Shown here piece by piece: positions 11,019 through 62,024 of a stretch of DNA of 64,000 nucleotides. Every line of letters begins with the position of its first letter. Positions within the stretch are counted from its first letter, which is position 1. The notes beneath the pieces were generated by a model, which searched no databases, was not told where the DNA came from, and saw nothing but the letters and a program-made list of their open reading frames with translations. The position numbers were made by a program, and so were the translations under genes. Source of the stretch: Psammoneis japonica (Eukaryota); assembly GCA_008632985.1 (NCBI GenBank), contig QPGO01000098.1:62001-126000 (forward strand), written 5' to 3'.

Positions 11019-11063
11019 GTATTCGATGATTTGGAAGGTCTAGAGAGCTAGTTGCTTGACGTT

Positions 11064-13886: not shown

Positions 13887-14133
13887 CCTCCTTGCACCCA
13901 AGTTTAGATGGAGATGGACTGACTCAAACCAACCCCGCTCGATGACTGTGACCCCTTGCTTGACCCGCATTGGAAGTGGGGTGCTTCCGACTCAAGATGA
14001 CTCGGTCTGGTCTTCTGACTGTGACCGGTCAAACTTTGGTTTTCTTTTCTCTCACTTTTCCAGCTTTGTCGGAACAGGAACCCTGATCAATGTGACTGGA
14101 TCACTCAAGCTTGGAAAAGCATTCTTCTTTTTA
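13887..14133 (+). repeat. Split direct repeat A1
   Basis: Near-identical to 22304-22550. Confidence 0.95.
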
Positions 14134-14322
14134 GTCTCTCTCATCATGTTGGATTTCTTCGCCTCGGGTGTCTCTGATGATGCGTTCGTCGATTTGGCTC
14201 GTCAGCTCGAGACTGATGTCATCTTGCCGTTCTCGTTGAGCTCTCCTGCAGCTGCCTCTCCTCAGGCTCACCCCTCTGGGGCTGCATGACAGGGGGGTCA
14301 CAAGGGCTTAAATCCCCAAGGC

Positions 14323-16602
14323 TTGAGCGAGGACATTTCGGGGGGTCATGGTCATCACCAATCGGACATTGACAGGGCGGAGTTGGGGGAAGTCATTTCC
14401 CACCCTCCAGGAACTCACGTTTTGGAGAGAGACGCGTCCCGCCCATTTCAGAGGGAAGCTCGCTCCTCTCGGGCAGGCTTCTTTGGGCGGGATTTGGCGG
14501 GTGATGGTCGGAGCATGCTTGAGATGGAGGGGGAAGGTGCGTCTTCTTCGTCCTCGCATGTGTCTCGTTGTCGGATCACCTGGCTGGAGACGACTGGCGC
14601 ACCCCGATGCTTGGGAATCAAGGGTGGGGGGGCCACCTTCTGCCTCAAAAAGGCAAGCGACTGCAACGTGAAGCACAAGGGTGGAAGTGTGGACATCCCG
14701 GCCATGGGGATGGTGGTTGTCCTCAAGTCACCGGATGCGGGGTTTTGCCAGCCCATTCTAGACGGAGGAAGCATGTCAGGCGAGGTGTCAGCAATGTGGG
14801 AATCGGAGTCGGATGCCCCAGCCGGTTGGAGGCAAAAGTTCTTGGTGCTGTCCAATGGCGAACCCTTCTTCACCGAGGACGAGGTTGAACCAGCCCTGCA
14901 GGAGCATGAAAGGGCAGCCGTCTTCAAGACGCCGGCTCGCAAGGAATGGCCGGAACCTGCCCCCCTTCACGAACACACCGTGTTGGAGGGGTTCATCCCA
15001 CATGAAAACAGATTCTGTCTGCACCTGCGCAGTTCCTGGCGGCAAACAAGAGCCTGTCTGCTTTAGCCCGGGTTGTGCAATCTGCCAAGGTGGTTTGCGG
15101 CAAGTCGGAGAGGCACTGGCCGGACCAGGTGACAAGGCCGGAAAGCGATCCAATGCCATGGAGTCCATGCTTGACATTCTCAGCCGCAAATTGGATCAAC
15201 TCGATGCATCCCTCGGCACTCTGACGCAGAGCTTTGATGAATCCCTCCTGGCTCCCACCTCTGGGGTGCCTTGGCAAACGTTGCATGTCGTGAATCAGGA
15301 GTCCAGTCCACGGACCTTGTGGACCGCATCACGGAAGTGGAAACGGGTTGGAGAAGCCAATCCAACCACCTCGTAAGAACGTTCAACAACAGGCTCCAAG
15401 GGATGCAAGACCGGTTGGGATCTATGGCGAGCCGCGCTGACCTGGAAACCTTGAAGAGAAACATGCTCCAGGTCTGCACGCAGCTGACCTCAAAGGTGAG
15501 ATCGTTGGAGTCACATGGAGCTGCGGGGTTCTCACCGCCAGGTGCTGCCCATGATCAAGGCTCCGTGGACGCACGCCTCACTCGACTGGATCGATCAGCA
15601 AGTGAGCTACGTGCAAAGTCAGACAAATCAGCGATCATGTTTTCGGGGGCAGGCGCATCGTCTTACGAGGATTGCCAGGCTTGGATGACGCAACACTTCC
15701 CGTCGCGGGCTTGTGGATGTTTGACCGACATTGTCCTCCTCTTGGATCGGATCAAAGGAATCGAGCCAATGGCACTGCACCATTTTCTATCCCAGTGGAC
15801 AAAGCGAATGAGTGTGAACATCGAAACCGAGGAAGATGCGCGAACCCTGGCGGGCTTCCAATGTCGCACGCCTCGAATCCTTGACTCGGGATCTGTGAAG
15901 TCGACCCAGACCTTGGGATTGCATCCCTCATGCTTGGACAGGGTCGAGACCCACGAACACTGGTCATCAGGGAATGTGGGAACGAAGCACTTCATCGAGG
16001 GGAAGATCGCCACGGTGGAGAATGATGTCATGGAGGACATCAATCAGCGCATCAGACCGGGAACATTCGAGAGCCAGGTGGTGCAGGATGCGTTGTCGAA
16101 ATCGGTGGCCTTTCTGCGGGCGCTGGCACAGTTCATGGACTCGACTTGTGCATCACTCACCAACCTGAGCAAGTTCTCCAAGAAGAAAGCGTGGTCCTTG
16201 ACCACCAAATTAACTCACCGCATCTTCTGGGACATCCACAAGGTGCGCTCCGGGGTTTTTACCTCCATTTCAGGCACGGACCCAGACGCAGTGTGCAGCA
16301 AGATTTTGTGGGCGGTGTTTCGGACCCAGGACATCATGGCGGAGCACACGTCGCTGGGCTTTGCCGATCATCCCTCAATGGCATCGGAGTGTGTCAAGTT
16401 TCTTGCGACAAACTCAGGTTTCGAGGTGGCAACGGATTTGCAATCCTCTGTCCTGACGCTGACCGAGAAAGCCAAAAACGCCAGCTCAGAGGCCAAATCA
16501 GCCCAGGCGCGAGGGGATGCTGCTCACGTTGAGCTTGGAAAATTGTGGACGGAGATTAAAGACCTGACTTGTTGGCTCAAGGCTCTGGAGAACAAGAAGT
16601 GA
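14323..16602 (+). pseudogene. gag-like ORF1 of the YR retrotransposon (frameshifted)
   Basis: Consecutive ORF pieces 14323-15066 and 15271-16602, with a Cys/His cluster (CLG..FCLKK..CNVKH) and predicted coiled coils; position upstream of RT. Confidence 0.65.
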
Positions 16603-17477
16603 AGCTCACGGGGAATGGAGGATCTGCGGGAGCAGCAGGTCTCGATTGGCAGGCCGACTGACCTGGGGCATGTCATGCGAGGCCAAAAAGCCTTCTCTTT
16701 TCAGGGAGCTTGTTTGATTCTCACCTCCGGTCCCCCAATCTGGCTTTTGTCCATGAGACCAAGGGAATGGCCCACTGTCTGCTGCTGCTGCGACGACACT
16801 GCCAGCTCCCACTGGAGCCCCCCATTGGCAGAGTTGTTCCAGAGTCAGTTGGACGCCTCCTTGGCACGTGTCTCGTGGTCAAGTGTGGAACAACTGGCTG
16901 AGCAGGTTGATGTTGTTCTCATGTCGGGGCACCCTCGTTCCTTGAATCTGCGGCACACATGATGCGGTCGGCGCCCTTGATTGTGATCCCTGTGGGAGCA
17001 GTTTCCAGGTGCAGCCTCCTCAGACTGCACCAGTTGCAGCGGCGGGACTTGACACACGTGGTGGTGGGCGGTGTTGCGTCTTTTCGGACTGCGCTGTTCT
17101 GGCGGGGGGTTCCTGCACCGGCCCTCAACGGAGGCCTGCGGCGCTCTGTTGGGCACATCATTGATTGTAAGCTCCCTGGGTCGCCATCGCCTCAACACCC
17201 TCGTGGTGATTTTCACAAGGAGGGTGACCTTCTCAACCCACAGTTTTTGAACCGACCAGTCGTTTGCTCATCTCATCGGTCGTTGACAGGTTGGGTCACC
17301 CGCACACTCTCGGTGGATGAGATGCTGGTGGCCTGGGATTTCCCTCTGCATTTCCAAATGTCCCAGGTACATCGGGCTTTTGAGCGGGGTTTTTCACTTG
17401 TCCCATTGAATCTCCTCACCCTTTTTGTGGAGGCGTTTGTTGAGGGCACTCCCCGGGATTTGCCATGACCTGGGGGT

Positions 17478-20250
17478 GTGGACCATGGGGACACGGTGGT
17501 CAAGGTTCCACTTCTCGGGGCTGGGACTTGGCCACCAGGTCTTTGGCGGCATTTGCCGCACACATGGATTGACGCATCTCTCATGACGGCGAAAGCCGCC
17601 AAGGACGATGCAGCGGTGCCTCCTTTCCGGTTGTGGGACAAGCGGATGACCCTGCTTTTCCTGGGCTTTGGCAAGGTTTTACCTGCCCTTCAGGACTTGG
17701 CACACCAATGGTGGCGGCGGAGGACTCTTCGGTCCTTTCGAGCACATCTGCGTTGGGAACATGGGTCGACGTGGGTCGCCATGCTGGCGATGCAATGCCG
17801 GCGTTTTGGGGACGCTACCGGGCATCTTCGGGGGGGGTTTGTCGCCACCCTCCACTCCCGTCCTTGGTGCTCGATGCACACCTTGGGGCGGAGGCGTTGA
17901 CACAAGCATTGGGCAGCTCCTGGTGGAATTGGGACCGAGGTTCTTCCCTTTTATTTTGGCGATGGCCCACTCCGGAACAGCGAGTTGGGGCTCGGGATGG
18001 GATCCGGATGTTTGTCAAAGGTCCCCTCCCTCGCAATTGCCGATGGCAGCGCATCCGGGGGTCCGAGCATGAGATTCTCAGGATGGCGGACAAAATTAGA
18101 AAGGTCCAAGACCAAGGTGCATCCATCGTGGAAGGGTGATTAGCTCAACCGACCATTTCTGGGTCCCAAAAACCGTCCGGGTGGAACCCCAGAATGGTCG
18201 TCTGGTGGAAATCGTCGAGGACGTATGAATGGTTTATGATGGGACCTCTTCCAGGTTAAATGATGCCCTCTGGGCACCCTCTTTTTCTTGCCCACTCCCG
18301 CGTCGGTTCTGGGGTGCATGACCCGCTCTGCTTTTTCGGTGGACCTCGATCTGGGTGATGTGTTTTTGAACTTTTTCATGGATCCCAACATTCGACCACA
18401 TGCGGGGATGACTTAACCCCACTCAAGCCATGTCTCCCATCGCAGGAGTCGATCTCGGCAGGCCCGCTCTGGTTTGAGCGATGGAACCGTTTGTTTGTGG
18501 GCATGCGGCCCAGCCCCTGCTTGGCGGTGCGGGCATTCCATTGGGCCGATGAGATTGCCAGAGGTGATCCGAACCGAGTCTCCAACATCATGGGATGCGA
18601 CAGGCTGCTCCCAAACTTGCCGGGTGACCCAAATTTCCAGATGGAGAAACCGTTTGTCATGAAGTGGAATTCGCGTCGCAAGGAAATTGCTGGCGACATC
18701 AAAACCTTTGTGGATGACTTGCAGGGAATGGGGGCTAGCGAGGAATCCGCGTGGCAAGTTGCTCACCAAATGGCCTCGTGCTTGCAGCATCTTGGTCTGC
18801 AGAATGCTGCTCGAAAGGCACGCCCTCCTTCTCAGATAGAAACCGGAGCTTGGGCTGGCACCATTTTCCGAGTTGTCAACAGGATGTCACCCAGTCGGCA
18901 TCTCAGGCCAAATGGGGAAAGCCAAGGGCATCATCGCCGAACTGCTTAGTTTTTACGCCAAGCAGCCGGAGGGCTTTCTTCCCACTTTTGACTTCAAGGA
19001 TCTGGAGGGAAAGCGGGGGTTTCTAGTCCACCTTGCTGTGACTTGCTCTTTTCCAATGCCATTCCTAAAAGGGATCCATCTGACCCTTGACTCCTGGCGC
19101 CCAAATTGGAAGAAGGATGGTTGGGCGATGACGGCCAAAGAGTTTGCAAGTTGGGTTCACCACCTCGCTGAGAAGCAGGGCCTTGACCCGGCAGAGGTTG
19201 CTGAGGGGCTGAGGGATCAACCGCCCCCTCCGCAGGTCATGGCGGTCCCTCGTCTTTTCATGGACTTGACAGCCATGGCCGCATTGCGGAGTCGCCGACC
19301 CCTGCTGCGGTCATCATCAGGTCCTCGAAAATCGTCACCATCCTCCATGGCTTTGGTGATGCATCTGGAAAAGGCCTTGGCACCTCCTTGGAAGCAGCAG
19401 ACGGAACAATTGCATTTCGGATCGGTGTGTGGGGCGATGATGAACTGGGGAACTCATCCAACTGGAAAGAGTCATCCAATGCGGTGGATGCCATCCAAGA
19501 ACTTGGAGAGCAGGGAGAATTGACCGGCGCGTGTTTGTTCTTTTTTACGGACAACTTGGTTGCCGAAATGGCTTGGTGCAAGGGCACCTCTTCCAGCCCT
19601 CTTCTGCTTGAGCAGGTTGTCCGGTTGAAAACTTTGGAGGCTGAGCATGGGATTGGCCACATCTCATGCATGTCTCGGGGGGGCGGATGACAGCACAGGG
19701 TGCAGACGGAGTCTCTGGGGGAGTGTTGTCCGAGGGAGTCATGAACGGAGCCAAGATGCTGTCATTTGTCCCTCTCCATCTTAGAGCCACAGCATGGTCG
19801 GCCACTCTCTTCACGTGGGTTCAATCTTGGGCTGGAGCCCCTCCTCCGGAACTGCTGACCCCCTTGGATTGGTGTCAGAAGGGTCACGACATTGTGGGGT
19901 GGAATTGCCCAGCTTGCGAAGCAATCGAAATGCCCCATTTCAATGCGGGCACTTGGGTCTGGGCCCCACCTCCAGCCGCTGCGAGAGCGGCTCTGGAAGA
20001 GCTCCGGATCGCAAGGATCAAGCACCAGACATGTTTCGCATGTTCATCTGCCCACGTCTAATGACACCGGAGTGGCAGAAGCAGTTGCACAAGGCAGCGG
20101 ATCTTGTGTTCACCATCCCGGCTGGATCAAGGCCTTTCTGGCCAGGTGACATGTTCAAGCCCTTGCCAATTGGCCTCTTTTTCCATTTGTTTCCTGCAGC
20201 CCTTGGCAGCTTTGGGGAACCCCAAAAATGCATGCTGTGGACCGGTCCTT
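17478..20250 (+). pseudogene. RT and RNase H of the YR retrotransposon (frameshifted)
   Basis: VDLDLGDVFLNF, GMRPSP, KTFVDDL, WAGTIF (RT); GFGDASGKGLG, FFFTDNLVAE, AQGADGVS (RNase H). Confidence 0.85.
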
Positions 20251-20599
20251 GCGGCGAGTGTGGCCGGATGCTGCGGTGGACGAAAGGAACATTCTGCGCA
20301 AATTTTGTGCACAATGCAGGAATCTGGCCGGCATGTCAGAGAGCATGGTGTCCAGGGTGTTGCACTTCAAAAGAAAGCATGACTTTCCATCCAGGGGGGA
20401 CTCTGGTGGACGACCCTCAAAACGATGATGCGCAAACACACGGGGGGGGACCGCCCAAGGCTGGACGACAATGCGTGGCACCGGAAGCCGCAGGACAAAA
20501 ACAAGTTCGTGCGGGCGCGAGCAGGGATCATCTCATGGTGGCGTTTGAGTGTGACACCTGTGCATTTCACAAGCTGCACCAGAGGGAACCTTTGCCTCA

Positions 20600-21743
20600 T
20601 CACCTGAGATGAGGTTGCTCCAGCGTGCATTCGGCGGGTGATCTTGGATGCGTTTTGGAGCAGGGAGTCGACAACGGTCGAAGCAAATGCATCGAGAGTT
20701 GGAAGAGGCCTCGTCTTGTCTGAACGTCTGGGCCTGACAGGGCCTCACCTCGAGCCAGGTCCTCTCCCGTCCTGTGATCACTGTGGGCATGAGGTCGCCA
20801 TGCAGATGTCTTGGCTTCGACGGCTGCAGGAAAACACTCTGAATCGTACACTCAGTTTGATGCGATTCGAAAATCATGCGGCTCACTCCAATCAGGTGCG
20901 CGCCTCGGCGCAGGCCAATTCACGTGCTCCAGCATTGGGGGACTTGGAAGGGAAACAGCATCTGCGGATGTGCGAAGACCCGTGTGCCTCACTGTGGTTC
21001 CAACGTTTTATGACCGGATGCAAAAGAGGATGGGCCAAGATTGGAGGCCCGACAGAGCGATGTTGGTTGATGTCATGCAACATCTGTTGCCTCGGGTCGA
21101 GGAGAAGGCTCTTCGAGCCCCAGGGGAGGTGGACAGATTTGTGCACCTTGCACGTGGATTGCACTTTGTGGCTGGCTGCGTCTTGTCTCTTCGAGGTCCC
21201 GAAGGTCTTCTTGTGGACTTGGGGGCTCTTGTCAAACATCTGCCAAGACATGCAGAGCATGTTGTGGCAGAGTCAAGGGAGAGCATGGGGAGCGGCAGCA
21301 CCCCCAGTGTCAACGTCACCAGCTCAGGTGTCAACCTTCAGTTTTGGGTAGAAATGGCAGTCTCGCTGCACTGGGGCCGTCGGCGAACACGTGGACCAGT
21401 GATGTCGAATGTGGACGGAGAGGTCTTATCCACTGAAGAGCTCAACGCTTTCTTGCATGAAGTTTTGGGAGACATCTATGATGACCACCCAAGCCTGTTT
21501 GCAGCTGACATCACTTCGGTTGCTGACACACAGGACAAGTGTGATGTGAGTCATTCGTTCAGGAGGGGTTCGGACTCGCGTGCCATTGCTCAAAAGGTGT
21601 CGGAAGATGACATTGACATCGTCAACTGGTGGAAGAAGAAGGAAAGATCGGGTGCGGCACGACCTGCACATAAAATGCGCCAACACCACGCCGATGTCAC
21701 CCTTCTTTTACCCTCATTCCTACGTCATGCCAAGGCCATGTGA
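20600..21743 (+). pseudogene. Tyrosine recombinase of the YR retrotransposon
   Basis: SLRGPEG (Arg), HSFRRGS (HxxR), W, and MRQHHA where the catalytic Tyr is expected. Confidence 0.85.
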
Positions 21744-21855
21744 TTCGGGCGGTCGCAAGCCCTTGGAAACGTCAGGTCCCCGGAGAGCAGTCTTCCAGCT
21801 TCCTGCTCTCTGGATCTTTATGTTTGGTGGCCACTGCCCAGGATTCTCATCGGGG

Positions 21856-22306
21856 GGATTAGAGCTCGACCCGCCTCATTCGGCCTCGGGAGTCGACAAG
21901 ACGAGGTCTGGGATTGCTGCGCAGCACAACACCTTCGACGGCTTCGGTTTTCGTGCGGGAAAACCTTGTCTGGCGTGTCTTCGTTCGAGACGGTCGTTTG
22001 CTCTCTAGTTCGCACCCAACGTCGCAAAATGCCGAAGGGTGCGACACTAGAGTTTGGCTCTCGAAAATGCCCGAGGTGTTGGTGCTCCGTGGATTTTCCG
22101 GAAGAGCCCCTGTGCTGGCACAGGACCCTGTGGAGGTTTGGGTTTCTCCCATCCCCCCGTGTACGGAGCAGAGCTCATGCCGAAAGCTCTGCTCTGTGAG
22201 TCTCCTGAGTGTCACAAGGTTTTTCATTGCTTCTTGGTGGTTCTTGATTGGGATCATTCGAGATCTAGTCCGAAGCGGCGGTTTGCTGAGTCGACACTCG
22301 GATCCT
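21856..22306 (+). repeat. Split direct repeat B1
   Basis: Aligns with 22568-23017. Confidence 0.95.
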
Positions 22307-22550
22307 CCTCGCACCCAAGTTTAGATGGAGACGGACTGACTCAAGCCAACCCCGCTCGATGACTGTGACCCCTCGCTTGATCCGCATTGGAAGTGGGGCA
22401 CTTCCGACTCAAGATGACTCGGTCCAGTCTTCTGACTGTGACCGGTCAACCTTTGGTTTTCTTTTCTCTCACTTTTCCAGCTTTGTCGGAACAGGAACCC
22501 TGATCAACGTGACTGGATCACTCAAGCTTGGAAAAGCATTCTTCTTTTTA
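22304..22550 (+). repeat. Split direct repeat A2
   Basis: Aligns with 13887-14133. Confidence 0.95.
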
Positions 22551-22567
22551 CCCACCCACCACACCCT

Positions 22568-23017
22568 GGATTGGAGCTTGACCCGCCTTGTTCGGCCTTG
22601 GAGTCAACAAGACGAGGTCTGGGATCACTGCGCAGCACAACACCTTCGACGGCTTTGGTTTTCGCAGGGGAAAACCTTGTCTGGCGTGTCTTCGTTCGAG
22701 ACGGTCGTTTACTCTCTAGTTCGTACCCAACGTCGCGAAATGCCGAAGGGTGCGACACTAGAGTTTGGCTCTCGAAAACGTCGAGGTGTCAGTGCTCCGT
22801 GGATTTTCCGGAAGAGCCCCTGCACTGGTGCAGGACCCTGTGGAGGGTTTGGGTTTCTCCCATCCCCCCTTGTGCAGAGCAGAGCTCACATCAAAAGCTC
22901 TGCTCTGTGAGTCTCCTGAGTGTTGTGAGGTTTTTCGTTACTTCTCAGTGGTTCTTGATTAGGATCATTCGAGATCTAGTCCGAAGCGGCGGTTTGCTGA
23001 GTCGACACTCGGATCCT
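22568..23017 (+). repeat. Split direct repeat B2
   Basis: Aligns with 21856-22306. Confidence 0.95.
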
Positions 23018-26000: not shown

Positions 26001-27504
26001 CCGCCCAAGCCCGTCCCGGATGTTACACCAACAAGAATGCGGTGCACTTCAACCCCAAGGCTGACTAGAAGATCCACAATGTGGACCCTCCGCTTGACCC
26101 CATGAACAATCTAGAGCACATGCTCATGTTGCTCATTCACCTGCATTCTGCAGCATTCATGTTGTGAGCTGGAGAAGAGGAACGTCATTCAATTTGCATT
26201 GCTGCTTGTCTGCTTCCAGCTGACACTCACACAGTTGTGCTTGTTTGCTTTGCACGCCATTAGATTGCCAAGCTTGAAGCAAGGCATGGCAAGTTTGGAG
26301 TCAAGCAAGATGGCCCTTGCAAGGGCTGCCATTTGATTGACCTAGATTTTGGCCGCAACGTGGACAAGGCATTGAAGCTGTCCCTCAAGAACACTTCCTT
26401 TTGTGAGGAGGAAGGTTTCCACGACCATGTCGAGAATCCTTGGGATCCATTTTGTGTTGTTCGGCTCACGGATCCCTGTCTCAATTGTTTTTGCCCCCCG
26501 GGTGTGACGGGCCACTTCTTTTTGTCACCCAGCACCAAAGAAGGAACTCAACACACGTCTGTGTGCTTTGGTTTTCAACTCGTTTGTCTCTGCTGTCATT
26601 GACAATCCATTGCTTGTGCTGTTGAACTCAGAGACGTGCAAGACTCATCCCACCCAAGACCCACCAAGTCAACATGACTCCCGGTGGTGTTTTTGGCAAG
26701 AACTGCCCCAACAAGGTCTCAAAGAAGCTTGCCCTTCCACGCAATTTCGATCAGCCGGAGAAGAACACGGCTCATTCCAAGAGGAGGTTTGGCATCTCCA
26801 AGTTAGCCAATTCAAAGGAGGCCATCTGCAGGAAGGAGACAACTGGTGCCACCCCTCACTCCAGTGAAAGCACTGCCGCCATTCATCAAGTGCCGAATGA
26901 AACTGCCAAGGGCAAGTGCTGCAGAGCATTTTTATTTGGTTCTGATGATCTTGACTCCCTGTCTTCCAATTCATCCACCAGCTCATCTTCCGCCCGTTCT
27001 CTGCCAGTTGTTCTTCCTCCTGGTCCCACATGCTTGCCCATTCTTGCTCCTGGTCCCGCCCATTCTTTGCCCATTGTCTCATCTTGACAGGAGCCAAATG
27101 CTGGATTTGCCAGCGCTCCTGCTCAAGCAACACCTGTCGCTCCTCAGCAAGCTCCCCAGTCCATCGCACTGTCCACCCTTCAAGCACAGTTGACCACAGC
27201 AACAGCTGTTCAGCTCCAGCCAATGCTCCAGCAGCCTGTGCAAGTTGTGCACTCCTCCAACCCGGCTTTTGCATGCCCTCTGCTGCAGCAAGTGCATCCG
27301 CTGGTGCAAGTGTGTCCGTCTGATGCCTCAGCTTTGTCTGCCTCAGCATGTGCATCCACCGCAGCAGGTGTGCCCTGTCCAGCAACTGTGCCAACCACTG
27401 CAGCAGCTGCAGGTGCATCAAGCACCACTGATGCAGCAGCAGTTGCACCAACTGATGCAGCAGCTGCCATGGCCACCTCTGCCGCTCACTCATGCTCATT
27501 CCGA

Positions 27505-27808: not shown

Positions 27809-28049
27809 CTTTTGTCTTCCTCTCCCTCGTTTCTTTTTTCCCGCGACTGCGTTTTTCGTCATGCTGCTGTGCGCCACGCTTGGTTTGCTCCTGATTTCAT
27901 TGCCATGGTTTCATGCAACCTTTCCATGTGCGTAATTTCCACATAAATGCCTCACATGTAGAGCACCAAAATGCTGTCAAATTGCATGGCAATGGCCATT
28001 GACGGTTTTTAGAATTGCCTGGGGCCACCCACACTCGAGCAGTGGGAGG

Positions 28050-29990: not shown

Positions 29991-32900
29991 GAGCTCAAAT
30001 GACAACAAAACAGGTGTTGAGCATCATTTTTAGCGCTTTGGAGTGCAAAACAGTGCAGCTGGAAAGAGCTGTTCTCTTTGTGACACTTGCAGCAACTGTG
30101 GCACCACAGTCAACAAGACAGCTGTGTCCTGTTGTTGTCAACAATTCTGTGGTCTCCTCTGCTTCCTGACTGTGCAAAGCAATGTCCGCACTGTTCGGAA
30201 CTCTGGATCCAGAAACAGAGAGAAGCCCTGCAATGAGGTTTGCCAAAATTGCAGCAACAAGCAAAAATTCCATGGCTCTGGATGGAGCTTCAGCAGGCTG
30301 CTTGCTTGGTGCCATTGCTGGAGGAGGCGCAACATGCAGACCTGCACTCCCATTCATCATCTTTGGTGCATGCACATTTTGGATCCCACAGCACAGTGCA
30401 GGTTCCAGGTTCTCTGGCACTGTCCAAGCAATTTGTGAAATCTCTTGCACTGCTAAAATGCTTGCCCCCTTCTGGTGCAATGGTTTTCCCAAAAGCAGCT
30501 GGACTGCTGAAGTCTTGTTTGCAACATGCCAGAAAGTCCATGCAATGCAGCTGAAGAAGTTCAGGGTCTTGTGTGGAGGAAATGCAGCAGACAAGCTCAG
30601 ATTCATTGGGAATGCTTGCATCTGGAAACTCTTTGAGTGCAGCTCAATTGCCAGTGTCATCGCAGGGAGCAAATTCTGGAAGCCCAGTTTGACACGTGCA
30701 AGTGTTGTTGCAAATGACAGTGCAATTCACCACAACATTCCATTCTTGGCCATGAAAGAAACTGTCATCTGCTGCAAAATGAAAGACAGCAGTGTTCACA
30801 AAGCAGCAGCAGCTGTCAATGCACAATGGTGCAAATCATGCCATTGCTGTCACAGGCATTTCCTGTGCTGTTGTCACCACAACATAATTTTCACATGTGG
30901 CAACCTGAAATCACATTTGTGGGCAAAATGGCACAGCACTGTCTGGTTGTCATGCACTTTTGACAAGCCAATGGGGGGTGGGGAGCAAAATTGAAGTCTT
31001 TTCTGGATCATGTGCAAGCACTGGTGTGCCATCAGCTGTGACCACAAGTCAAGTGAAAGCAAGACACTCACATTGTCTTGTCTTCAACATGCAATGCAAC
31101 TGATGGAGCATCTCCAGCACACTCAGCTCATGACATGTTCTCGCTCCAGGTGATGCACAAAATGACAGCCCATTTTGAATGTCAGCAGTGTGTTGTTCAC
31201 ATGTAAAATGCTCTCACAAAAAACACTTGTGTGGATGGGCTTTTGCAGGTGTCTGCAGCATGGACAGTCAAACATTGTTTTTGCAGCACTGAAGTCATGA
31301 AATGCTCATCACAAATTGCTCAGTGGACTCAACGCTGATTGTGCGACAGCACATTGGGTGTGGCAAAGTCTTTGCAAGTGGAGCTCCAACCAGAAAGCAC
31401 CAGCAAAACATCAACATTTGAACACATCTGTGCTTTTGGTGGCAGAAGCTTGGTTGCAAGTAAGAGACTGCACAAAAATCATGCAATTGTTTTTGTGCAC
31501 AATTTGGTCAATGCGCAGGAGCTAGCTGGGACACAACATGCCCCACCCCAAGTGGCAAGAAGTCAATGCAGCCTTCCAGAAATCTGTGGAGTGCTCACAA
31601 CACTGCAGTGCCTGACCAAAACTGAGACCGCAGACTGTGTGTGCCTCAAATTCCTGAGCTGTGATCCAACCACATCTCTCACACAAATGCCACACAAAAC
31701 AGCACCAAGGTGCCACATGGAATGAGGACCTGTGGCATGATGAGAAAGAGCACAGACCATGAGTGAGTGCATGTCTTGCAAAAACCAAAAAGTCTTTCCT
31801 GCAAAAGGCAACAACAGCTGTTCAGCAAGAAAGACAATGCCACTGAAAGACAATGATGAAAAGGCACACACTTTTTAATGTCATTGCTTGCAAGGTGCAA
31901 CAGGCAGCAAAGTGCAATGACACAATGAGTCAGCACTGACCAAAAAGCAATGATTTTGCACTTGCAACCAACCAATTTTTTCTGCTCCAACCATGGCATG
32001 CTTCTGTCACAATTTCAACCAGAATCCAGTGGCAAAAGTCACATGTGCCAGTAGGTTCAAGCAGCAGGGTTGCATGCTGTTGGAGTGCAAAGCCTCAGCC
32101 TGCACATGCCTGGAGAGCATGCAGCACACCAGCACCACACCACCTGCATCAAATGCATCAACACCTGCACTGCTGCCCAGGTGGCATGCTGGAAAATGTT
32201 GCTAAAATCTGCATGGGAAGTGCAGGATGGGCTGTGCACAAACTGCTGGTTGAGCCTGGCCCAACTTGTCCCCCCCCTGCAGCCCCCCCCCCCCCCCCCA
32301 AGGGTGCCAGTGGCTGGGGCTCTGCACACCAGTGAGTCCTGGGGGAGACAGGCACAGGAGGCCAGGCCAACAGCACCTTGACCAGGGCTGGTGTTCAGGA
32401 TCATGGCTGAAAAGATCCTTTTGCTTGCACCAACACTTGTCTGCTGGTCAATTGCAGTGAGCATGAGAGCGCCGTTGGCTCTCTGAATTCTTCACCAGAA
32501 GGTGGCCTCCCTCTCTCATCTTGTCTGCTTGTGCACACCCATGGCATGCATGACTGCATGCCAGTTGCACAGCACAGCGCACACAAAAATGGAAGATTTT
32601 GGCATTGCATTCACTGCCTGTCAAAGACTGCTGGCTGTCACTTTCATTGCTTGTTGCTGGTGAGACTGCACCTGCCTCTCACCTCTGCTTGGGTCATTTG
32701 GCACAGAGCATTGTGGACAGCAGAAAAAGTCCAGTCATTTGCAGTGCCTGTTTTGCCATTGTGGTGGGTGATGACAATGATGAGGCTGAACCTGCTCTTG
32801 TGGATCAACTTGAAATTGTTCAAGATGACTCTGGAAGCAGTGAAAAGCAAGCACAAAGCAAACCAAGACAACTCTTGAAAGGCACTGGGGTGCCTTGCAT

Positions 32901-33389
32901 TTGCAGACATGGTGGCAGATGTTGTGCAAAGAAGTTGAGCATCATGTCTTCCACAAGAGTGTCACAATGAAGTGACCCAAGAAGCATTGAAGAGCTGCGC
33001 TGAAGGTTTTTAAGAACAGGTGAAACCACAGGAAGCATGCACAGGAGACTGCAGAACAGAAGATCTTTTGGAGGATCCCAGCAGTGCAAAAAAGTGCTGG
33101 ATCTTCCTCACAAAATTTGTCTGGTGGCAATGAAGAGCAACACTTCAGAGGTGTTGGAATGGCTGAGAGAGAAACAAGCCCCATGTTTCAAAAGAACAAA
33201 TTGGTGCCAAGAATCCTGAAAAAGTGTGCCAAACTCTCCTCCATGAGGCAGAGTGTTGAAACTGAACCAGCCTCAATTCCCTCCTCCTGCAACTTGGTGC
33301 ATCAGTGGACCCACAAAGCAGTTCTGGCAATGACGCCCCTTGACAAGCTTGTTTGTCAATGGAAGCTGAGCCAGAAGCTTGGCTCTTGT

Positions 33390-35310
33390 TGGAATGGGGT
33401 GCCAAAATGCAAGTGAGCAAACAAGAGGCATTGACATGGGAGCTGGCCAAACAGGAGGGAAATCCCTCTTTGGCAGCACTCATGAAAATGCCAAAAGTTG
33501 CTTGATGGTGTGAGCTTGTTGACCTCCAAAAATGATTGGATCTCAATGGATGGATGGGAGTCACTCATGAACACATCCCATCTGTGGGCCATTGCATCAT
33601 CAAGGTTGAGCTGGTTGACTCAAGAGTGGGTTTGGGTCTGTCCAGCTGATGTGAAGCAACATGATTGCACTCCTCAAGATGCAGGAGTCTGTCACCAGCA
33701 TCACCTGGACAAAGATGCTGATGGCCACAATCAATTTCATGTGGGCTCAAAGGCAAGCTGTGACCAAGAGGTGAGTGATTTAAACAGATGCAAAAAATGG
33801 AGGGAAAAGATCAAAGAAGAGCAAGAGGACAAGACTCAAGAGCTGAGCTCACAGGCAAAAGCAGTTTGATTGACAGAGGTGGACTCGGGCAACTGTCACC
33901 TGTGCATGGACTGACATTTCAGTGAACTGCTGTCAATCCAGACATTTTGGTCCCCAAATCCAGGTTTGCATTTTTTTGTTGAATGAAGCAAAGACAAGAG
34001 AGCCCTTGTTTTGGGACATGGAGAATGATGCTTGCTCCTGTTTTTCAAAATGATGCAGCTCAGCTGAAGGGCTTGTCAACTGAAAAGTTGATTGCCAGCT
34101 GTGCCAAAATTTGTCATCAAGACCCAAACAATGATCCAGAACAATGTGGTGTGCAGTTGTTCAGCAAAGAGTGGCATCTCTGGAAGAAACAATGAGTGTC
34201 AAATGTCAAAATCTGTTTGCAGCCCCCACCACTCCCACACAGAGTGCAAAGCCCCATGGGCAATGTGTCCAACCATGAAGCACAGGACCTCTTCAATGAG
34301 CTTCATGTGCTTGCACTGAATGTGGATGTCAGCTGACTGGCAAAGTTGATCCAACCTTGGACATTCATTTGGAGAACATGCACTGGCAACCTGGACACCA
34401 CCAATTTGCAGTCATTCCTCACAATCTGGTTTGGAGCAGTTGCCTGAACTTGTGCACTGCCTCCTTGCTGGGGGGTTGTTTTGCTCAACTTGACAAGTGC
34501 CATTTGTTTGAAGGAAATGGGCATCGGAGTGCAATGGCAATGGAAGCTCATGTTCATCAGAAAGGGATGACCATGATCATCAAATCCCACAATGAATCGC
34601 ATGACCAGGAGAAAGGATTGGCCACCTTTCTCTGGAAACAAGTGCCACACAGTTGTGGTTGGATGGCTGCTTGTGGCAAGATGGCCAAGAAAATGCTGAG
34701 AGAAAGCAGCAAATGATCCTTGGGGAAGAGCAGTCAGCTGATCCGTGGGTGTTCTCATGTTTTCTCTTTTTGCTTGGAGTTGACCACAGTGCCAGTGCTG
34801 CAAACAAGCACAGTGGAGGCTGGTGTTTTTGTGCCATCAAAAGGCTGCAGAATTGACTTGAGAACTGGTTGCCTTCATGCTGGCACATGCAATGCATCTC
34901 TCTCTCCACCAGCCAGTGATGGGTCCCTCTGCCAGAGTTGTTGCTTGCACATGCACACTTGCACAATCAGTGCATTTCATGCTTGTGAAATGGGTGAGCA
35001 TGTGACAACAGATGACTTGTGCACCTCTGGCACATGTTGCACACATGCAACAGATGAAAAAAGGACAGTTGCTGAGGTCCAGCCAAAGCTGCCCTCAACA
35101 AAGTGTCAATCACCCCCTTGGTAGCCCAGGCAGCTGTTGAGATGTCACCTGTGCTGTTGGGCTCCCACCACAGCAGCTGTGGATGACAAAAGTCTCCATG
35201 GTGAACTTTGCAGAGTGTCCAGCTTGCTGTCCAGTGTTTCCATGAATCTCTTGGTTCACAAAGAAGCACACACAAAGCACCAACAATGAACAGAAGCAGA
35301 AAAGAAGCAG
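33390..35310 (+). repeat. Old duplicated segment, copy 2
   Basis: Colinear with 28050-29990. Confidence 0.8.
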
Positions 35311-37942
35311 AGACAAGGTTTTTTGCAATGAACCCGGTGTCAAGCATCATTTTTGTGCCCGGACTTTTCTTTGAGAAACACGTGCATCAACCCCATTTTT
35401 GTCAACATTGTTGACCAGTTGAATTTTTGGCTGCTTGTTTTGACTCGAAAAGAGGTGCAGTGCATGCTGCAGTGCCACTGTGCTGTGACAAAGAAGTTGG
35501 GTTGCAGCAGGTAGAATGGGGCAGGTGCAAATGGGAAACCATCAAAACTGCTGCTCTCCTCCTCTGTGGGGCATCACCTGGGCCAACAGCCTTTCTGTGT
35601 GAGTGATGAAGATGACAGTGTCAAAGGAAGCCAGATGGACAATGAGTCAAAAGAGCAGCACAGCCAGATCATGACAGAGCAAATGGTGAGTTGAGCAGCT
35701 TGTGCAAAGTGTGGGTCCACCCTCAATCATCAAACTCACTTGCTGTCTCTTTGCACCAATCAAGCAACAAAAAAGAAAATTCTCTGTTGGCACAAGATGA
35801 TGGCAGCTCAGATCCATGTGAGTGCAGAGAATTGTGAAAGAATGGGCACTTGTTTCATTGAGTCCTTTGCAACTTTGTACAGCCACCTGCTCATCTCAGC
35901 CTTTGTTTGTTGAGGGATGTTGCAATGGCGGAAAAATGATTTGACAGGTGTCACAAAATCTTGTTCTCTGGCCCCACTGCGCTGGTGTGCTGACAGTTGA
36001 AAAGAACTTGCAGAACAATGGACTCCCCTTGTCAAAAACCTTTTCTGTCAGGGATGACATGGAGTCATTTGTTGTGCTCTGTGGTGTCTGCAAACTGCTC
36101 CATTCACTCCATGAGTGGTCTTGCTGCTGAAACCCAGCCTTTTGTCATGGCAGCATCTTCATGTGGTTGCCACATGTGCAATCTACGTTTGACCCCCTCT
36201 CACAGTGTTTTGGTGGGTCTTGCTGCAGCAGCTGGTGGCCCAGCTCTCCCATCTCTTCTTTGGCTTTGATGCCCCACCTTGTTTCATCCCCTTCTCCTTC
36301 AGACTTGTGTTTCCCCAAAATGCAAGAGCGCCTTTGTTTTTGTTGAGGACATGTTGACCAGGTCAAATGTTGGATCATCCTTTGACATGTGTGCCTTTTT
36401 ACATCATTCCAGCAGAGATGACTTGAGCTTGGCAGTTCTTTCAATTCTTGTCCATTGTGTTGGTTGCAAACCCAAGAGCCACCCCCAAAATGAAGTGTTC
36501 AGAGTGACAGCACACTTGCACAAACTTCACTCCAGCCACAAATGACTTTTCTGGACTGGCACTTTGGGCATGCTCTCACTTGTTGGCTGATGCCATCAAC
36601 TGCCAACTCAGCAATGCAGGAAACACAGGATGCACTTGGGCACCATTTTTACAGCACCTGGCTCCAGCCCTGCCATTTTGAAGAACAACTCTTGCAAAGT
36701 GTGAGCCCAAGTCTCAGCAGTTTCTGTTGTTTTACCCACTCACTGTTTGCAAGGCAGCTGTTGCACAAGTTTGAGGAAAGAAACTTGGCAGGTGCAACTT
36801 CCACACTCTTTGTGACAGACTCCTCTGTTGCAGGCAAATCAAAAGAGCTGACCTTGGTGTTTCAGCAAGATTGTTTTGTGAAGTGCAATTTTCAAGGTTC
36901 CAAGGGCAGGGTGCAACTGGCCAACTTTCAACACATGTGTGCATGTGCTTGAACGCAACCTTTTCTTGTTGTTGCACCACATTTTCAGGACAGAATGACC
37001 TTGCAAGTGTCAAAATGAAAAGTGAGCAGTTAGAGACATCATTGTGGTTTTGACCATGGCAGCTTGGGAGCAAGATTGCAGAAAAATGTTCACCAGCAAG
37101 TGTTGTTTGCATTTTTAACATGTTTGCCATTTGTGGGGATGCACTTGTTTTGCATTCATTGGAGTGTCAACACCCACCCACTTGTTTGCCACAACTCAAC
37201 AGGGCTCTGTGAGAAAGTGATGATGACATGCTGGCAATGACACGGCATGACTGCAGTGCTGAGAACAAGGAAAGTCAGAGAGAAGTTCCTGCAGCATTTG
37301 AGCGCAGCTCTTTTGGCCATGCCCCATCACTCTGAATGGCACCTGCAATTGTGCCCCACAGAAGTGGCCCAGTTGCCATCCAATGCTGGGTTAGAGACTT
37401 TTGCATTGACCAAAAAGACACACTGCAAAATGTTTGACAGCTTGAGAATCTTTGCCTCCTGCTCCCATTGTTGCAAAGGTTGCCATTGTCAAGAACAAAA
37501 GAAGCAAGCAATGGCACAACAAGAAGAGTCTCACAAAAGTGGCCCTCCCTCTTCTCTCATTCAGAGGGGTTCTGTGTTGAAGCTGCCAGGTCTTGGTCTT
37601 GGTGGCTGTGTGTCATTCCCACTTAGATTGGGATCTCCATCAGGTTGTCAGCAATGCTCATGCTCAGCACAAGCGGGGCCCCCCTCTGCCAACCAACGAC
37701 ACTCAGATTGCACATTTCAAAAACCTCATTGACTTTGACAAAGACCATTTTGCACATTCTCTTTCTCATTTTCGTGGCTGCAACATCTCTGCCACAAGCC
37801 GACAACTCTTGCACCATTGTTGTTTGCATTTGCTGCTGTTGCTGCAGCTCTTGGCACCATCTCCACTTGTGTGCTCTCATGCACAAAAGTGTCAACACCA
37901 ACAGCCCCACGTGCGCCAATGCTTCCAGAGCACTGATTTGCC

Positions 37943-38980
37943 ATGGCACCGGTGAACAGCACCCATTCCAAGACAGCAACATCTTGGCGGGAATGCATTT
38001 CATCCCTTCAAGCGGCAATGTCACCAACGCCAGTGCCAGATGCCACTGTGGATGCCAGTGCTCCACCCATTGCTGATGCTCCATTGGTTGGCACCTCCAT
38101 CATGGCAGCAGTCCGTGAAAGCATCCGTCCATCCAATGCCACTGATCATCCGGCTGATGCCCCTGCCATTGCCTCTCCCCTGCTGCCACCCACGTTACCC
38201 ACCATTGCTGCTCCGCCTGCTGGCATGTCGGTGCCCTCTTCCCTGCCTTGTTTGCCTCCACCTCTGGACCACAACTGGCCGCATTCACCTCCGGTGCCAC
38301 CTGCGGACCTCAACCCGCAATTTCAAATGCAGTTGTTGGCCTCTGTGGCACTGAATGAGGAGTGTGGTGAATCTCTGGCCAAGGCTAAAGCTGCCATTGC
38401 ATCACTCCACCAGGAGCTTGATTCCCTCCGGTCTGTGGTTGAACAGACTCGCACTGATGTGGCCAATGTTGCTGCTGTGCGAGCAATGAACACCTTCCGA
38501 ATGTCAATTGAGACTCAACTGCAAGCCACCAAAGAAGAGGCTGTTGCTTCAGCAGGCGATGCCACTGACGCTGCAGTGGCGGCTCGTGATGACCAATTTG
38601 TGCAACAGCCAGACAAGCACCTCGCCCCCCATGGTCCAATTTGCCTCAGCTTTGGCAGTCTTGCTGACCAACAGGTTGTGCTGCTGGCCTCCAATTTTGA
38701 AGTTGTTGGGCTGGAAGCATCAGATGAGAAGCACATGTCTTGTCCAGAGGATGTCTCAAGGCAAGTGAGAAAGCAAGCAATGGGCAGCTCTGATGGCAAC
38801 AAGTCTCCAAATGGCGGCAATGTTGATGAAGAGGTGGACTCCAATCCAGCCTGCACTTGTGCTGGTGGCTTTTTGGATGGCAGTGTGGGTGTCCATTGGG
38901 GATGTGGGGTGCAGATTCTTTTGTCACAAGAGAGTTGCCTTTTGACAATCCATGTGCAGATGAACAAGCACCCAATGTGA
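37943..38980 (+). pseudogene. Pro-rich and coiled-coil relic ORF, possibly from a retroelement gag/ORF1
   Basis: Protein-like helical stretch (LAKAKAAIASLHQELDSLRSVVEQ) within decayed DNA; no diagnostic motif. Confidence 0.3.
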
Positions 38981-41973
38981 CCTCATCTGAAAAGCACTTT
39001 TTGCTTTGATGCTGACATGCAGCAAATGTGTTTCATGAGATTGAACTGAATGATCAAGTGAGGCTCCCAGGCTGTGTTGTCTCTGTCATCCAGAAATGAT
39101 TCCCAGAACCATGTGGCATCTGCAAAGGACACAAACATGTGTGCATCCAGCAGTGGGCACAAAACAAGCAAGCTTTTCAACTGCTTGATTGCTTGACATT
39201 CCAGTTGACAGAGAGTGCATTGTCTTCTGTCCAACCATCACTTTGCCCTTCTTCCTTGGTTGCATCACTTGGGCATGTTTTTGCATGATGGTTCTGGGCA
39301 TTTTGGCTTGGGCAGCATCTGGCAGTGCACAGGCGCACAAAAAACCAACATTTCCCATCAACTGTCCAACTGCCAAACACTCCAACTGTGTTGCCTCACA
39401 TTTAAAATGTTTTCTGCTGCATTGGTTGCAAGGTCTCTTTGGTGCATCCCAGTGTTTCCCATTTGTTCTGCAGTCATCATCAAGCAACACTTTGTTTGGT
39501 TTGTGTCTCTTTGGATCCTGTGGGTGTCCTTTGAGGAGTTGCACAAGTTGCACCAGCTCTCTTCTTTGACACTCTCTAGAACTCAGTTTTGTTGACTTAG
39601 ACCCCACAGCCTTTTTGTCCTTCTTTCCAAACATTGTTTTCTGATGGGCCTTTTGAACCATCAAGTCACTGCATTGGAAACTGTGTGGGCCAGTGTCATG
39701 CAGAGTCCTGCCTGGGGCCAGAGCTCATCTGCAGGTTATTTGTCATCTGCAGTGTGAAAGAAGAGCAGCTTTTTGGTGCTTGCAAACCTGGTCAGTGCTC
39801 CTCAATCACAGTGCTTGTGATTGCTGTCCAATCTGTCAGTTTGATGGCCTTCAGGAGAGCCACCCAGCTGTCTGTGGCAAGATTTCTGTGCATCAATGTG
39901 CTCTGTCTGTGTTTGCTGGACAACCTTGCACAACCTCAGCAACTGTGCTGCCAACTGGTTCTTGGCAATGCACAACTTCTTGCAACCATTCTCTGCAGAT
40001 CCATGAACTGCCTCTTGCCACCAATCCCCATCTGCAGTGTGGCAGGCCCCCCAAATGTGCAGAACAAATTACAAACAATGTGCTCCACTGCTTGCAGGCA
40101 GCTGTGGTTGGTCACACACTGATTGTGACCTCAGCACAAATGCAACTCAATGACAAGGCACCAGTGAAAAATCTCAAGAACCCCCCTTCATTGAAGGCAT
40201 GCACATTCCAAGTTCCCAATGGGGTGAGTGTCTCAAAAGAAGGCATCAGAGCTCTCATGGCCTTTGTCATTCCCAACAAAGTGCAATGAACCACAGGCTC
40301 CCATGTTTCTGGAATCAACCAGTGGTGCTTGTGATGTGTGGGCTCTTGTGAGTTTTCTTGCCAGGGCAGCAATGTGCACAATGAAGATGACTGACTTGGC
40401 TGCAGCCACGCACTTTGCATCATTGTGCAAGTGTGCCTGAACCAAGCCTGTCCAAGCAGCAAAGCAGCAGAGGAGCACAGCAACACTTTTCAATGCACTG
40501 ATGCTGCAAACACCAGCTGTCATTCTGGCACCACAATGAACCTGATGCAGACTCCTCCAAATTTCCTCAAGCTGCTTGTGGGCAGCTCATGTGCTGGTTT
40601 TGCCAGCCAAAGCTTTCATGATGACACTGCTCAATTGTGCCATTTCCAAAGACAACAGGTGAGCTGTGACAGCTGAGGTTGCACAACAAAGATTGAGCCA
40701 TGCCTCTGCTGGGTTGTTCCTTGGTGCTTGCTTCAAGCAAGACAAAGTGCCCACCACAGGCTCACAAGCAAACCTCATGTCTGTGTGTCACTCATGTTTT
40801 GTCCACTTGAAAAAATGCCTCCCAACACAAAATTTTCCTTGTCATTCAATCCAAGCAGACTCTGCGCATCTTCGTTTGGAAGATGAGACAGTCCTGCAAC
40901 TCCATTGCTTGCTTCCCACCAGCCTTGTGCAAATCCCAGATTGCTGTGTTTTAGCTGATTGCAAGTTCAGCGCAGTGCAACATCCACCCACTCCATGCCA
41001 ATGCAAACAGTGCTGGGTGGTGGCAAGCAAAACATGTCCTCCTGAAGACACTTGACAAAGGCATCATGGCACAACAAGAGAACCACAAGAGATCAAGTGG
41101 GTCATTGTGGGCATCACAGGCCCAACCAAGGATGTCTGGGAAATGATGTTGGGTGCTTGCATTTTGTCACACAGTCTTTGCTGAATCATGTCCATGGAAC
41201 TCAATGCTGCCATCCGACCATTGCACGAATCTCAACTGTCTGCAACTCGTGAAAACCTGAGACAGTTGACAAAACATGAGGTCGAGCCAAACCGGGTGGT
41301 GTGCGTTGGGACGAGCCACCACTTCTGCCAGGTGCCATGTGCAATTTCGATTGTGGTTTTCTGCCAAACGCTCCTTCTCGACCAACGCAGAAGAAAGGAA
41401 AATTGACGACAAGAATGAACAAGCCACGAGCTTGGAAAGGACAGGAGCATCTGTTGACCAACTTGTGGGACTCGATCTTTTTCTTTTTGGTGTTTGGATG
41501 CAAAAAATGCTGGAAAATTTTGGAAATCCATCAGAGTTCTCATTGGAGTTCGCTCCTGTAACTGACGTGCAAATCCCACGTAGCTGTGCCGGCGCGAGCA
41601 ATTTCATTCGTTGCTTTTTCATGTTCTTCGTGCAAAATGCACGTGCTTTGATCGTTTTTTGTTGACACACACAGAAAACGATCGAAAAAAGGCACAAGAA
41701 CGAAAATGGGAAAGCATCTTTTGTTGCGCATTGCTGTTTTTGACTTGTTGTTCCTGCCGCCAATGAGTGAGACACAACACGATGCCTTGATGAGAGAGAG
41801 GGGCTTTGATGCGTTGCTGACAGTCCCTTTCTGACGTGCCTGTCAACTGATGACCGATTGCTGAATTGAATTGGGAATGCTGAAATGTGCAATTCTTCAA
41901 TCTGAAACCATTTGCTTCCTTCCCTCGTCATCTTCTACGTGGCACTGCAGTCGCAAGTTCTACAAAAGCACGC

Positions 41974-61977: not shown

Positions 61978-62024
61978 GGTGGTGTTGGTGTGAGTACGAC
62001 GAATGTATTCAGAGGGTCCAAAGA

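Follow-up and report, generated by a model that had tools for sequence, protein, structure and literature searches.

Evidence for two mutation processes, a fast loss of TpA and a slower decay of CpG, on the same chromosomal domains of a diatom

A stretch of 64,000 nt from the genome of the diatom Psammoneis japonica, referred to below as the window, has lost most of its TpA dinucleotides and, in places, most of its CpG as well. The window comprises positions 62001 to 126000 of one contig of the 91.4 Mb assembly (C100:62001-126000; C100 is our contig label, and other loci are given as L with a number). The missing TpA were truly mutated in the DNA, to TG or CA and symmetrically on the two strands, and we consider it likely that the same chromosomal domains of this diatom are subject to two distinct mutation processes, a fast one that removes TpA and a slower one that removes CpG. 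Over the whole window, the observed/expected ratios, which are used throughout, are 0.16 for TpA, 0.60 for CpG, and 1.53 for TpG/CpA. The original prediction had held that TpA erasure is faster or earlier than CpG decay and no by-product of it, and the analysis bears this out, with TpA/CpG hazard ratios of about 2 to 20 and a simulated effect of CpG decay that is too small. The genes and elements that carry the comparison are:

60293-62020, minus strand: intact AAA-ATPase-like gene (PF09820), a 522-aa open frame (Pfam E 1.2e-13) used as polarising reference; TpA 0.55 and CpG 0.96 over 60100-62000
9356-11269, minus strand: duplicate of 60293-62237 (AAA-ATPase-like gene plus a small element), now erased; 2.3% divergence at other sites
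11313-13800, minus strand: intact gene-bearing island with the open reading frame 11815-13254, polarising reference; TpA 0.56, CpG 0.98
1-7261, minus strand: long interspersed nuclear element (LINE) with endonuclease and reverse transcriptase, the youngest family seen; TpA 54/416 = 0.13, CpG 368/462 = 0.80
46484-54383, plus strand: second LINE; TpA 0.10, CpG 0.81
13887-23017, plus strand: tyrosine-recombinase (YR) retroelement; TpA 0.13, CpG 0.70

In the duplicated host genes, the two losses can be read against an intact partner. Only 4 of the 55 TpA of the intact copy at 60293-62237 are kept in the duplicate at 9356-11269, while 47 have become TG or CA and three CG. For CpG, 31 of 84 are kept and 51 have become TG or CA, so that CpG survived significantly more often than TpA (Fisher p 5e-5). 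The other 1322 sites of this pair show 21 transitions (11 AT>GC and 10 GC>AT) and nine transversions. Thus, CpG>TpG/CpA (51/84) also far exceeds other transitions, and GC-biased conversion was rejected because the other changes in the two directions are balanced. The longer duplicate of the gene at 11313-13229, located downstream at C100:158865-160370, has kept 7 of 54 TpA and 44 of 97 CpG. Overall, the gene duplicates have lost about 90% of their TpA versus about 60% of their CpG at 2-4% divergence at other sites, which corresponds to a hazard ratio of 2.0-3.2, and their intact partners persist at 88-91% identity to the erased copies. TpA gains are limited to 0-2 per close pair. A double change TA>CG was also considered as the origin of retained CpG and rejected, since it was seen in only 3/55 and 1/54 sites of the gene pairs and in 0-1 columns per element family.

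Several side observations concern these genes. The frame at 60577-62142 (P0002) belongs to a diatom family of PF09820 AAA-ATPase-like proteins with 31 homologues and has several local duplicates, one of them intact; the named homologues of the window protein are from Cylindrotheca, Seminavis, Bacillariaceae, and Attheya. The frame at 11815-13254 (P0001) encodes 479 aa, has no Pfam match, and is accompanied by two erased tandem duplicates at C100:157846-160370. Like these homologues, 24 silicon-transporter matches elsewhere in the genome mark the DNA as that of a diatom; they include broken copies with in-frame stops (C53:435240-436044, C53:275025-275797, and C119:96497-98091) that are candidates for further polarised pairs.

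The YR element and both LINEs had been described as having little TpA and many CpG, and indeed their TpA ratios are 0.10-0.13 and their CpG ratios 0.70-0.81. The LINE label is based on endonuclease Pfam matches and 114 long LINE-type homologues. Ancestral TpA and CpG losses were estimated by a star-tree mixture fit over the copies of each family. For the family of the LINE at 1-7261 (three copies), 71-83% of 111 ancestral TpA are lost versus 7-11% of 168 CpG, the copy in the window lying at 83% and 11%. The hazard ratio is 11-20, and TpA events lead CpG events by about 5:1. Between the window copy and the copy at L099, which differ by 0.7% at other sites, 146 CpG and 16 TpA are common, and at 43 of 3321 columns one copy has TG where the other has CA. 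The family of the second LINE (six copies) has lost 86-93% of its TpA and 37-47% of its CpG (91% and 37% in the window copy), and the YR family (three copies) 85-88% and 22-40% (88% and 37% in the window copy), and these two families share a hazard ratio of 3.4-7.6. With ratios of 11-20, 3.4-7.6, and 2.0-3.2 for the three groups, the two losses do not scale together once the ancestral state is allowed for. Expressed relative to divergence at other sites, TpA mutation in the youngest LINE copies is about 280-510 times higher, which is a rough lower bound, and the CpG hazard is, in a similarly rough comparison, about 9-87 times higher.

The proteins tell the same story. At the conserved Tyr columns of the LINE at 1-7261, compared with the best 30 of the 114 long homologues, only 3 of 17 Tyr are kept and 12 of 17 have become Cys or His. 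At the conserved Arg columns, compared with the same best 30 of 114, 17 of 27 still have a CGN codon and two show a CpG-type change (kept Tyr 3/15 versus kept Arg 17/19, p 7e-5). Six LINE relatives from outside have TpA ratios of 0.58-0.63 and CpG ratios of 0.88-1.01; therefore, the LINE family was not TpA-poor at its origin. None of the 114 long homologues has a Tyr content below 2.4% (0.69% here), and none of six metagenome loci is TpA-poor; this search by way of LINE proteins favours intact, recognisable copies and is uninformative on absence of TpA erasure elsewhere.

For the YR element, Pfam found no match in the degraded frames, and we therefore assigned it by its terminal structure, by recognisable motifs, and by look-alikes in the ESM-Atlas. 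The former consists of split direct repeats (13887-14133 resembles 22304-22550, and 21856-22306 resembles 22568-23017), and the latter have scores of 0.96-0.97, some of their clusters carrying PF00589 on 25-36% of the members. The frame at 20793-21743 contains motifs that we take to be recombinase-like, and the expected catalytic Tyr position reads His, the outcome that TpA erasure would give. The sequencing run X1, available as contigs only and possibly the source data of the assembly, differs from the window at 278 positions, 231 of them transitions. Among the 40 best-supported of these 278, 33 lie inside the YR element, 20 of the CpG type and four of the TpA type; this majority hints at TpA saturation, although alleles or close copies may be involved. 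One X1 contig joins the ends of the YR element from 14104 to 22895, skipping 8790 bases, with 22 letters on the short side, and this join may be a repeat artefact.

The remaining blocks of the window differ mainly in CpG:

23100-23643: stretch with CpG 0.33
23644-28048, no strand assigned: dispersed element, both ends of which co-occur in L051, L062, and L064; TpA 0.07, CpG 0.37 (intermediate)
28052-30256, no strand assigned: segment common with a downstream paralogue; TpA 0.06, CpG 0.29 (intermediate)
30339-41100: core from which TpA and CpG are both gone; TpA 0.02-0.06 and CpG 0.04-0.07 outside the insert 37599-38631
37599-38631: 1-kb insert, probably solo-LTR-like (LTR, long terminal repeat), a younger island in the core; TpA 0.06, CpG 29/76 = 0.38
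41100-46483: TpA-erased, CpG-rich segment present in both paralogues; TpA 0.12, CpG 0.75
55000-58000: intact island, used as control; TpA 0.66, CpG 1.11
58100-59900: doubly depleted block with an N gap at 58411-58752; TpA 0.05, CpG 0.14; a 93% copy lies upstream at C100:46403-47958
62900-63950: TpA-erased block with intermediate CpG; TpA 4/66 = 0.06, CpG 24/66 = 0.37

Taken together, the region 23100-41100 has TpA 60/1187 = 0.05 and CpG 210/1064 = 0.20, and the proposed convergence on TG/CA-rich sequence is apparent from a TG+CA ratio of 1.81. Of the blocks that were said to lack both dinucleotides, 30339-41100 and 58100-59900 do so, while 23100-30256 and 62900-63950 are intermediate, with CpG ratios of 0.29-0.37. 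Thus, TpA loss is almost all-or-none, nearly a switch, and CpG loss is a gradient. Within the CpG-rich segment, a tandem duplication with units of about 165 bp lies at 43137-43469; its two units are separated by 14 transitions and no transversions.

The sequence context and the strand distribution of the changes were determined from the alignments. In five non-redundant pairs, A>G changes occurred at 134 of 298 adenines preceded by T, compared with 10/635 after A, 22/597 after C, and 12/587 after G. In the same pairs, TpA was kept at 0/42 RTAY sites, 3/73 mixed sites, and 12/29 YTAR sites. In the set of ten alignments, sites with TAY on one strand and TAR on the other changed at TAY over TAR by 72:28. 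TG and CA outcomes in the polarised pairs were 98:82; both DNA strands are struck. Neighbouring changes fell on the same strand in 74 of 170 cases, versus a shuffled mean of 85, and processive action on a single strand was not supported, there being no same-strand runs beyond those in the shuffles. A weak A>G signal at non-TpA NAY sites is borderline (16/686 vs 8/880, p 0.04; p 0.13 without CpA sites, which are confounded by CpG loss in the reference).

The original prediction had spoken of two separable tiers, and this holds for time and rate; in space, the two losses are nested and CpG forms a continuum. We sampled the genome in ten fixed stretches on eight large contigs, yielding 98 usable 1-kb windows of 100 (two with N were dropped). 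TpA was below 0.25 in 48 of the 98, of which 25 had CpG below 0.35 and 11 had CpG of at least 0.6. CpG below 0.35 was found in none of the 45 windows with TpA of at least 0.4 and, in a larger set of 845 windows from overlapping and repeat-biased loci, in none of 156. Low CpG thus never occurred without low TpA in the sampled windows. Boundaries of erasure are sharp, within a few hundred bases, and islands of ordinary genes are spared (TpA 0.55-0.66).

Erasure depends on the neighbourhood, as is evident from small elements present in many copies:

62025-62237: element of 213 bp in high copy number, with terminal inverted repeats of 37 bp; its TpA count tracks its flanks

Across 26 copies of this element, the TpA count correlates with the TpA of the flanks (Spearman 0.76, p 5e-6), and the correlation of CpG with the flanks is weak (rho 0.34, p 0.09). 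For a second small element with 15 copies, rho is 0.86 for TpA and 0.79 for CpG. Multi-copy elements stay intact where the flanks have normal TpA. The targeting of TpA erasure follows the genomic domain and not copy number or pairing.

A relative chronology is provided by a degraded segmental duplication, in which positions 9369-55769 of the window correspond to C100:157211-177576. The window copy is far longer, due to insertions and possibly also to deletions in the paralogue, and divergence at other sites ranges from 2.2% to 4.9% along the duplication. (Upstream, C100:45606-48317 contains additional copies of 57999-60308 and 9008-9366.) The second LINE is flanked by a target duplication of about 18 bp and its empty site is found in the paralogue; therefore, it was inserted after the segmental duplication. 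The same applies to the insert 37599-38631, which has a 5-bp target duplication (TGGTC) and an empty site in the paralogue. For the YR element and 23644-28048, this stretch is missing entirely from the paralogue, so that no empty site is available there to date their insertion. Core and paralogue differ by only 24 TG/CA swaps in 2842 columns, and therefore the core was mostly erased before the duplication. Relatives of 38632-39242 at L085, L090, and L091 have kept TpA at 0.65-0.70 and CpG at 0.85-0.90. In the later insert, 29 of 76 CpG remain compared with 20 of 342 in the older flanks, which supports an effect of time. Since the duplication, 130 of 183 CpG were kept in each copy of 41100-45539, compared with 15/33 and 15/31 in 28052-30256 (p 0.008 and 0.02) and 64/147 in the host-gene duplicates (p 6e-7).

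The TpA hazard is about 1.2-3 throughout while the CpG hazard rises from 0.07 to 1 and beyond, which is the pattern of a fast process that saturates early beside a slower one. The suggestion that both indices could date insertions is only in part upheld. By about 0.4% divergence at other sites, TpA loss has almost saturated, and TpA therefore cannot rank insertions older than the youngest; moreover, its fate is bound to the neighbourhood. For CpG, the rate varies by a factor of two to three within a single segmental duplication, and the resulting order of residence times in erased domains is rough at best.

Several other explanations of these patterns have to be weighed. That TpA disappears as an arithmetical consequence of CpG decay, the added T and A depressing the observed/expected ratio of TpA, has practically no chance of being correct. 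An artefact of this kind was reportedly described for vertebrates by Duret and Galtier in 2000, and when all CpG of host-like DNA were decayed in a simulation, TpA fell from 0.59 to 0.48; the actual values, however, are 0.02-0.13, aligned TA turned directly into TG/CA in 47 of 55 cases, and TpA is lost where CpG is kept. In a simulation of the reverse effect, 85% TpA erasure alone lowered CpG from 1.00 to 0.86, and therefore the CpG ratio of about 0.8 in the LINEs is partly arithmetic. It is scarcely more credible that the elements were TpA-poor from their origin, owing to codon use or selection against UpA, and that only CpG decays after insertion. All copies of the three large families found in the genome are indeed TpA-poor (0.05-0.28 in long alignments), and no intact master copy was found among them. 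But copies differ by TG versus CA at the same columns, conserved Tyr codons were converted, outside relatives have TpA of about 0.6, and duplicates of ordinary genes were erased beside intact partners. ADAR-like A-to-I editing of element RNA before reverse transcription, which would remove UpA first, is very unlikely. It would fit a mild TG excess on the sense strand and the matches to PF02137 (ADAR/ADAT1 domain) at two loci, four in the genome. Yet it predicts TG on the sense strand only, and CA makes up 39-43% of the outcomes; gene duplicates made at the DNA level and small inverted-repeat elements are erased too, and their fate follows the insertion site. The outcome on two strands in DNA duplicates thus excludes a route via RNA as the main cause.

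More room, though still not much, has to be left for TpA changes that are collateral to methyl-CpG deamination, the T:G mismatch being processed by a patch repair of the Pol eta type that places G opposite T. Strict spatial nesting with CpG decay would be expected from such a coupling. Pol eta prefers A>G at WA, TA being the strongest site, and also mutates AA and leaves strand-coordinated clusters; here, AA is spared (10/635 versus 134/298 after T), same-strand runs are missing, and the youngest LINE has about 5:1 TpA over CpG events. Somewhat better placed, while improbable as well, is a change of the thymine rather than the adenine, in which the T of 5'-RTA-3' would be oxidised or alkylated by an enzyme bound to chromatin and would then pair with G. 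Since A>G in TAY and T>C in RTA describe one base-pair event, they cannot be distinguished by sequence, and the genome has, as a purely conjectural link, a deaminase-2OG-Fe(II) (2OG, 2-oxoglutarate) oxygenase fusion gene at L182. However, no candidate enzyme or precedent was found, and the TAC/TAT preference resembles that of TadA-derived enzymes, as far as it is described in the portions of that literature consulted. The fusion itself (L182:310-1785) combines a zinc deaminase domain (PF00383/PF14437) with a 2OG-Fe(II) oxygenase (PF14226, PF03171). A possibility of greater weight, which we nevertheless doubt, is that differences in CpG between blocks reflect the local strength of methylation over age, the "tiers" being chromatin states. 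Unequal CpG retention since one duplication speaks for it, as does a later insert with CpG below that of an earlier segment. On the other hand, CpG of the insert 37599-38631 is far above that of the older DNA of the same domain, the core was mostly erased before the duplication, and parts diverging by 2.2-4.9% may differ in age.

The reading that we prefer, with a fast loss of TpA and a slower decay of CpG, can be formulated as follows. Once a transposon inserts or a gene copy enters, or comes to belong to, such a domain, A:T in TpA is changed to G:C on either strand, preferentially in 5'-TAY-3', a step that can be followed directly in the aligned copies. It proceeds at several hundred times the background rate, with 70-90% of the TpA gone while less than 1% of other sites have changed, and then stalls at resistant YTAR sites. 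CpG is converted to TpG/CpA at about a tenth of this rate and continuously, in the pattern that methyl-CpG deamination in silenced transposon DNA would predict. Both processes yield TG/CA; therefore, young inserts have TpA gone and CpG kept, and from long-resident DNA both are gone. The common targeting signal would most likely be silent chromatin with CG methylation, by analogy with Phaeodactylum. There, DNMT5a methylates CG in transposon-rich domains, which also bear H3K27me3, H3K9me2, and H3K9me3, according to the parts consulted of Hoguin et al. (PMC9998398). The chemistry of the first step would most likely be DNA adenine deamination by an enzyme of the TadA/ADAT type. Set against thymine-side chemistry and error-prone repair together, we give this assignment slightly less than an even chance. 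The genome has nine matches to PF00383, including TadA-like and ADAT2-like genes by motif reading (L180, L183). A search for MT-A70, the N6-methyladenine methylase, found no match in the genome, and none in the controls either, which makes this negative uninformative.

Several points weigh against this reading or limit it. The star-tree fit presumes independent copies, an assumption that is safest for the first LINE, and shared ancestry blurs the results for the YR and second LINE families. On the sense strands of the LINEs, TG and CA outcomes are 30:19 and 160:122, a mild TG excess that would allow a small share of an RNA stage. The segment 41100-46483 predates the duplication and yet has CpG 0.75, compared with 0.38 in the later insert 37599-38631, so that CpG is not strictly a matter of age. 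The data do not fully distinguish an earlier loss of TpA (a burst) from a faster one (a constant higher rate, with some sites resistant). The deaminase-family genes found look like housekeeping types, any tie to the TpA pattern being hypothetical, and the presence of DNMT5 among the genome's 27 matches to PF00145 is putative. Finally, the genome sample amounts to 100 kb at fixed sites on large contigs, and its windows are autocorrelated. Several broken or clustered cytosine-methyltransferase-like PF00145 copies, possibly transposon-borne, are located on C297, C10 (610995-617549), and C28 (650504-651471).

The closest known system is that of the rhizarian Bigelowiella natans. In mutation-accumulation lines of this alga, and intermittently between lines, TpA>TpG/CpA occurs at about 1000 times the background rate in two viral inserts (Mettrop et al., bioRxiv 10.64898/2026.01.13.699255), the integrated DNA being of nucleocytoplasmic large DNA virus and virophage origin. 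The accessible text of this preprint also proposes an untested ADAT-type deaminase and notes an enrichment of transposon domains among TpA-poor coding sequences. As far as that text allows the comparison, the diatom process shares the change TpA>TpG/CpA, the action on both strands, the local confinement, a rate of hundreds- to a thousand-fold, the preference for foreign or silent DNA, and the confinement of the A:T>G:C excess to TpA. With the same limitation, the differences are as follows. The host is a stramenopile here and a rhizarian there. About half of the 100-kb diatom sample is at TpA 0.0-0.2, versus 0.45 in the viral region of B. natans, and the targets found here are LINEs, the YR element, small elements, and duplicates of ordinary genes, compared with integrated viral DNA there. 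Heavy co-located CpG decay is seen in the diatom, whereas the accessible preprint text mentions neither CpG nor diatoms; its spectrum is almost exclusively AT>GC, while in the diatom TpA leads by about 5:1 in the youngest LINE and CpG decay is heavy in the long term, a contrast that may reflect the different time scales. The TAY preference was found in the diatom, and the main text of the preprint contains no such analysis; conversely, the rate was measured directly in lines of B. natans and is derived from sequence in the diatom. The diatom process thus appears to be a variant of the B. natans type and not a member of it, any common enzymology being putative. Our literature search, which left most subscription journals outside, retrieved no diatom report of TpA erasure, and the B. 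natans preprint was the one described case.

Repeat-induced point mutation (RIP) of ascomycete fungi, which is triggered by homology and depends on RID/DIM-2 during the sexual cycle, converts C to T at CpA, thereby making TpA, and mutates both duplicates. The diatom process resembles RIP in that dinucleotide-specific transitions ruin transposons and duplicated genes with sharp boundaries. Its direction is the opposite, TpA being lost in the diatom and gained from CpA in RIP. Also unlike RIP, the partners at 60293-62020 and 11313-13229 remained intact, high-copy elements in gene-rich surroundings escape, and strand-coordinated runs are missing. The slower tier is like methyl-CpG decay, with CpG>TpG/CpA confined to transposon-rich domains, a process that cannot account for the removal of TpA. 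In the excerpts consulted, TadA-derived enzymes have a UACG motif (PMC8052359), and TAT and TAC are among the promoted motifs of adenine base editors (PMC10879117). On this basis, the likeness to TadA/ADAT2 is one of motif only (A>G, T before, and C or T after), and those enzymes are engineered or act on tRNA.

Taken together, the results show that neither the chemistry nor the speed of a TpA mutator depends on methyl-CpG decay, yet it acts on the same domains. A mutator described once, in one rhizarian preprint, is thereby extended to a stramenopile and to the genome scale, including transposons and redundant gene copies. For genome analysis, this means that repeat ages, ratios of nonsynonymous to synonymous substitutions (dN/dS), and the dating of pseudogenes become seriously biased if TA, CG, TG, and CA columns are left unmasked. 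In addition, TpA erasure makes no stop codons from sense codons; therefore, dead elements mimic long frames that are Tyr-poor and rich in Cys and His. The existing DNMT5 knockouts of diatoms make a direct test of the co-targeting of domains possible, and a natural, locus-targeted A:T>G:C editor of DNA with a TAY preference is of interest for genome defence and for base editing. More speculatively, and with considerable doubt on our part, diatoms may carry a dedicated adenine-editing defence of their DNA, in which a TadA/ADAT-derived enzyme at newly silenced chromatin would strip TpA, preferentially TAY, in a rapid, saturating wave before CpG decay tells. It would have rewritten about half of the genome, and it may have a common descent with its Bigelowiella counterpart across SAR (stramenopiles, alveolates, and Rhizaria).

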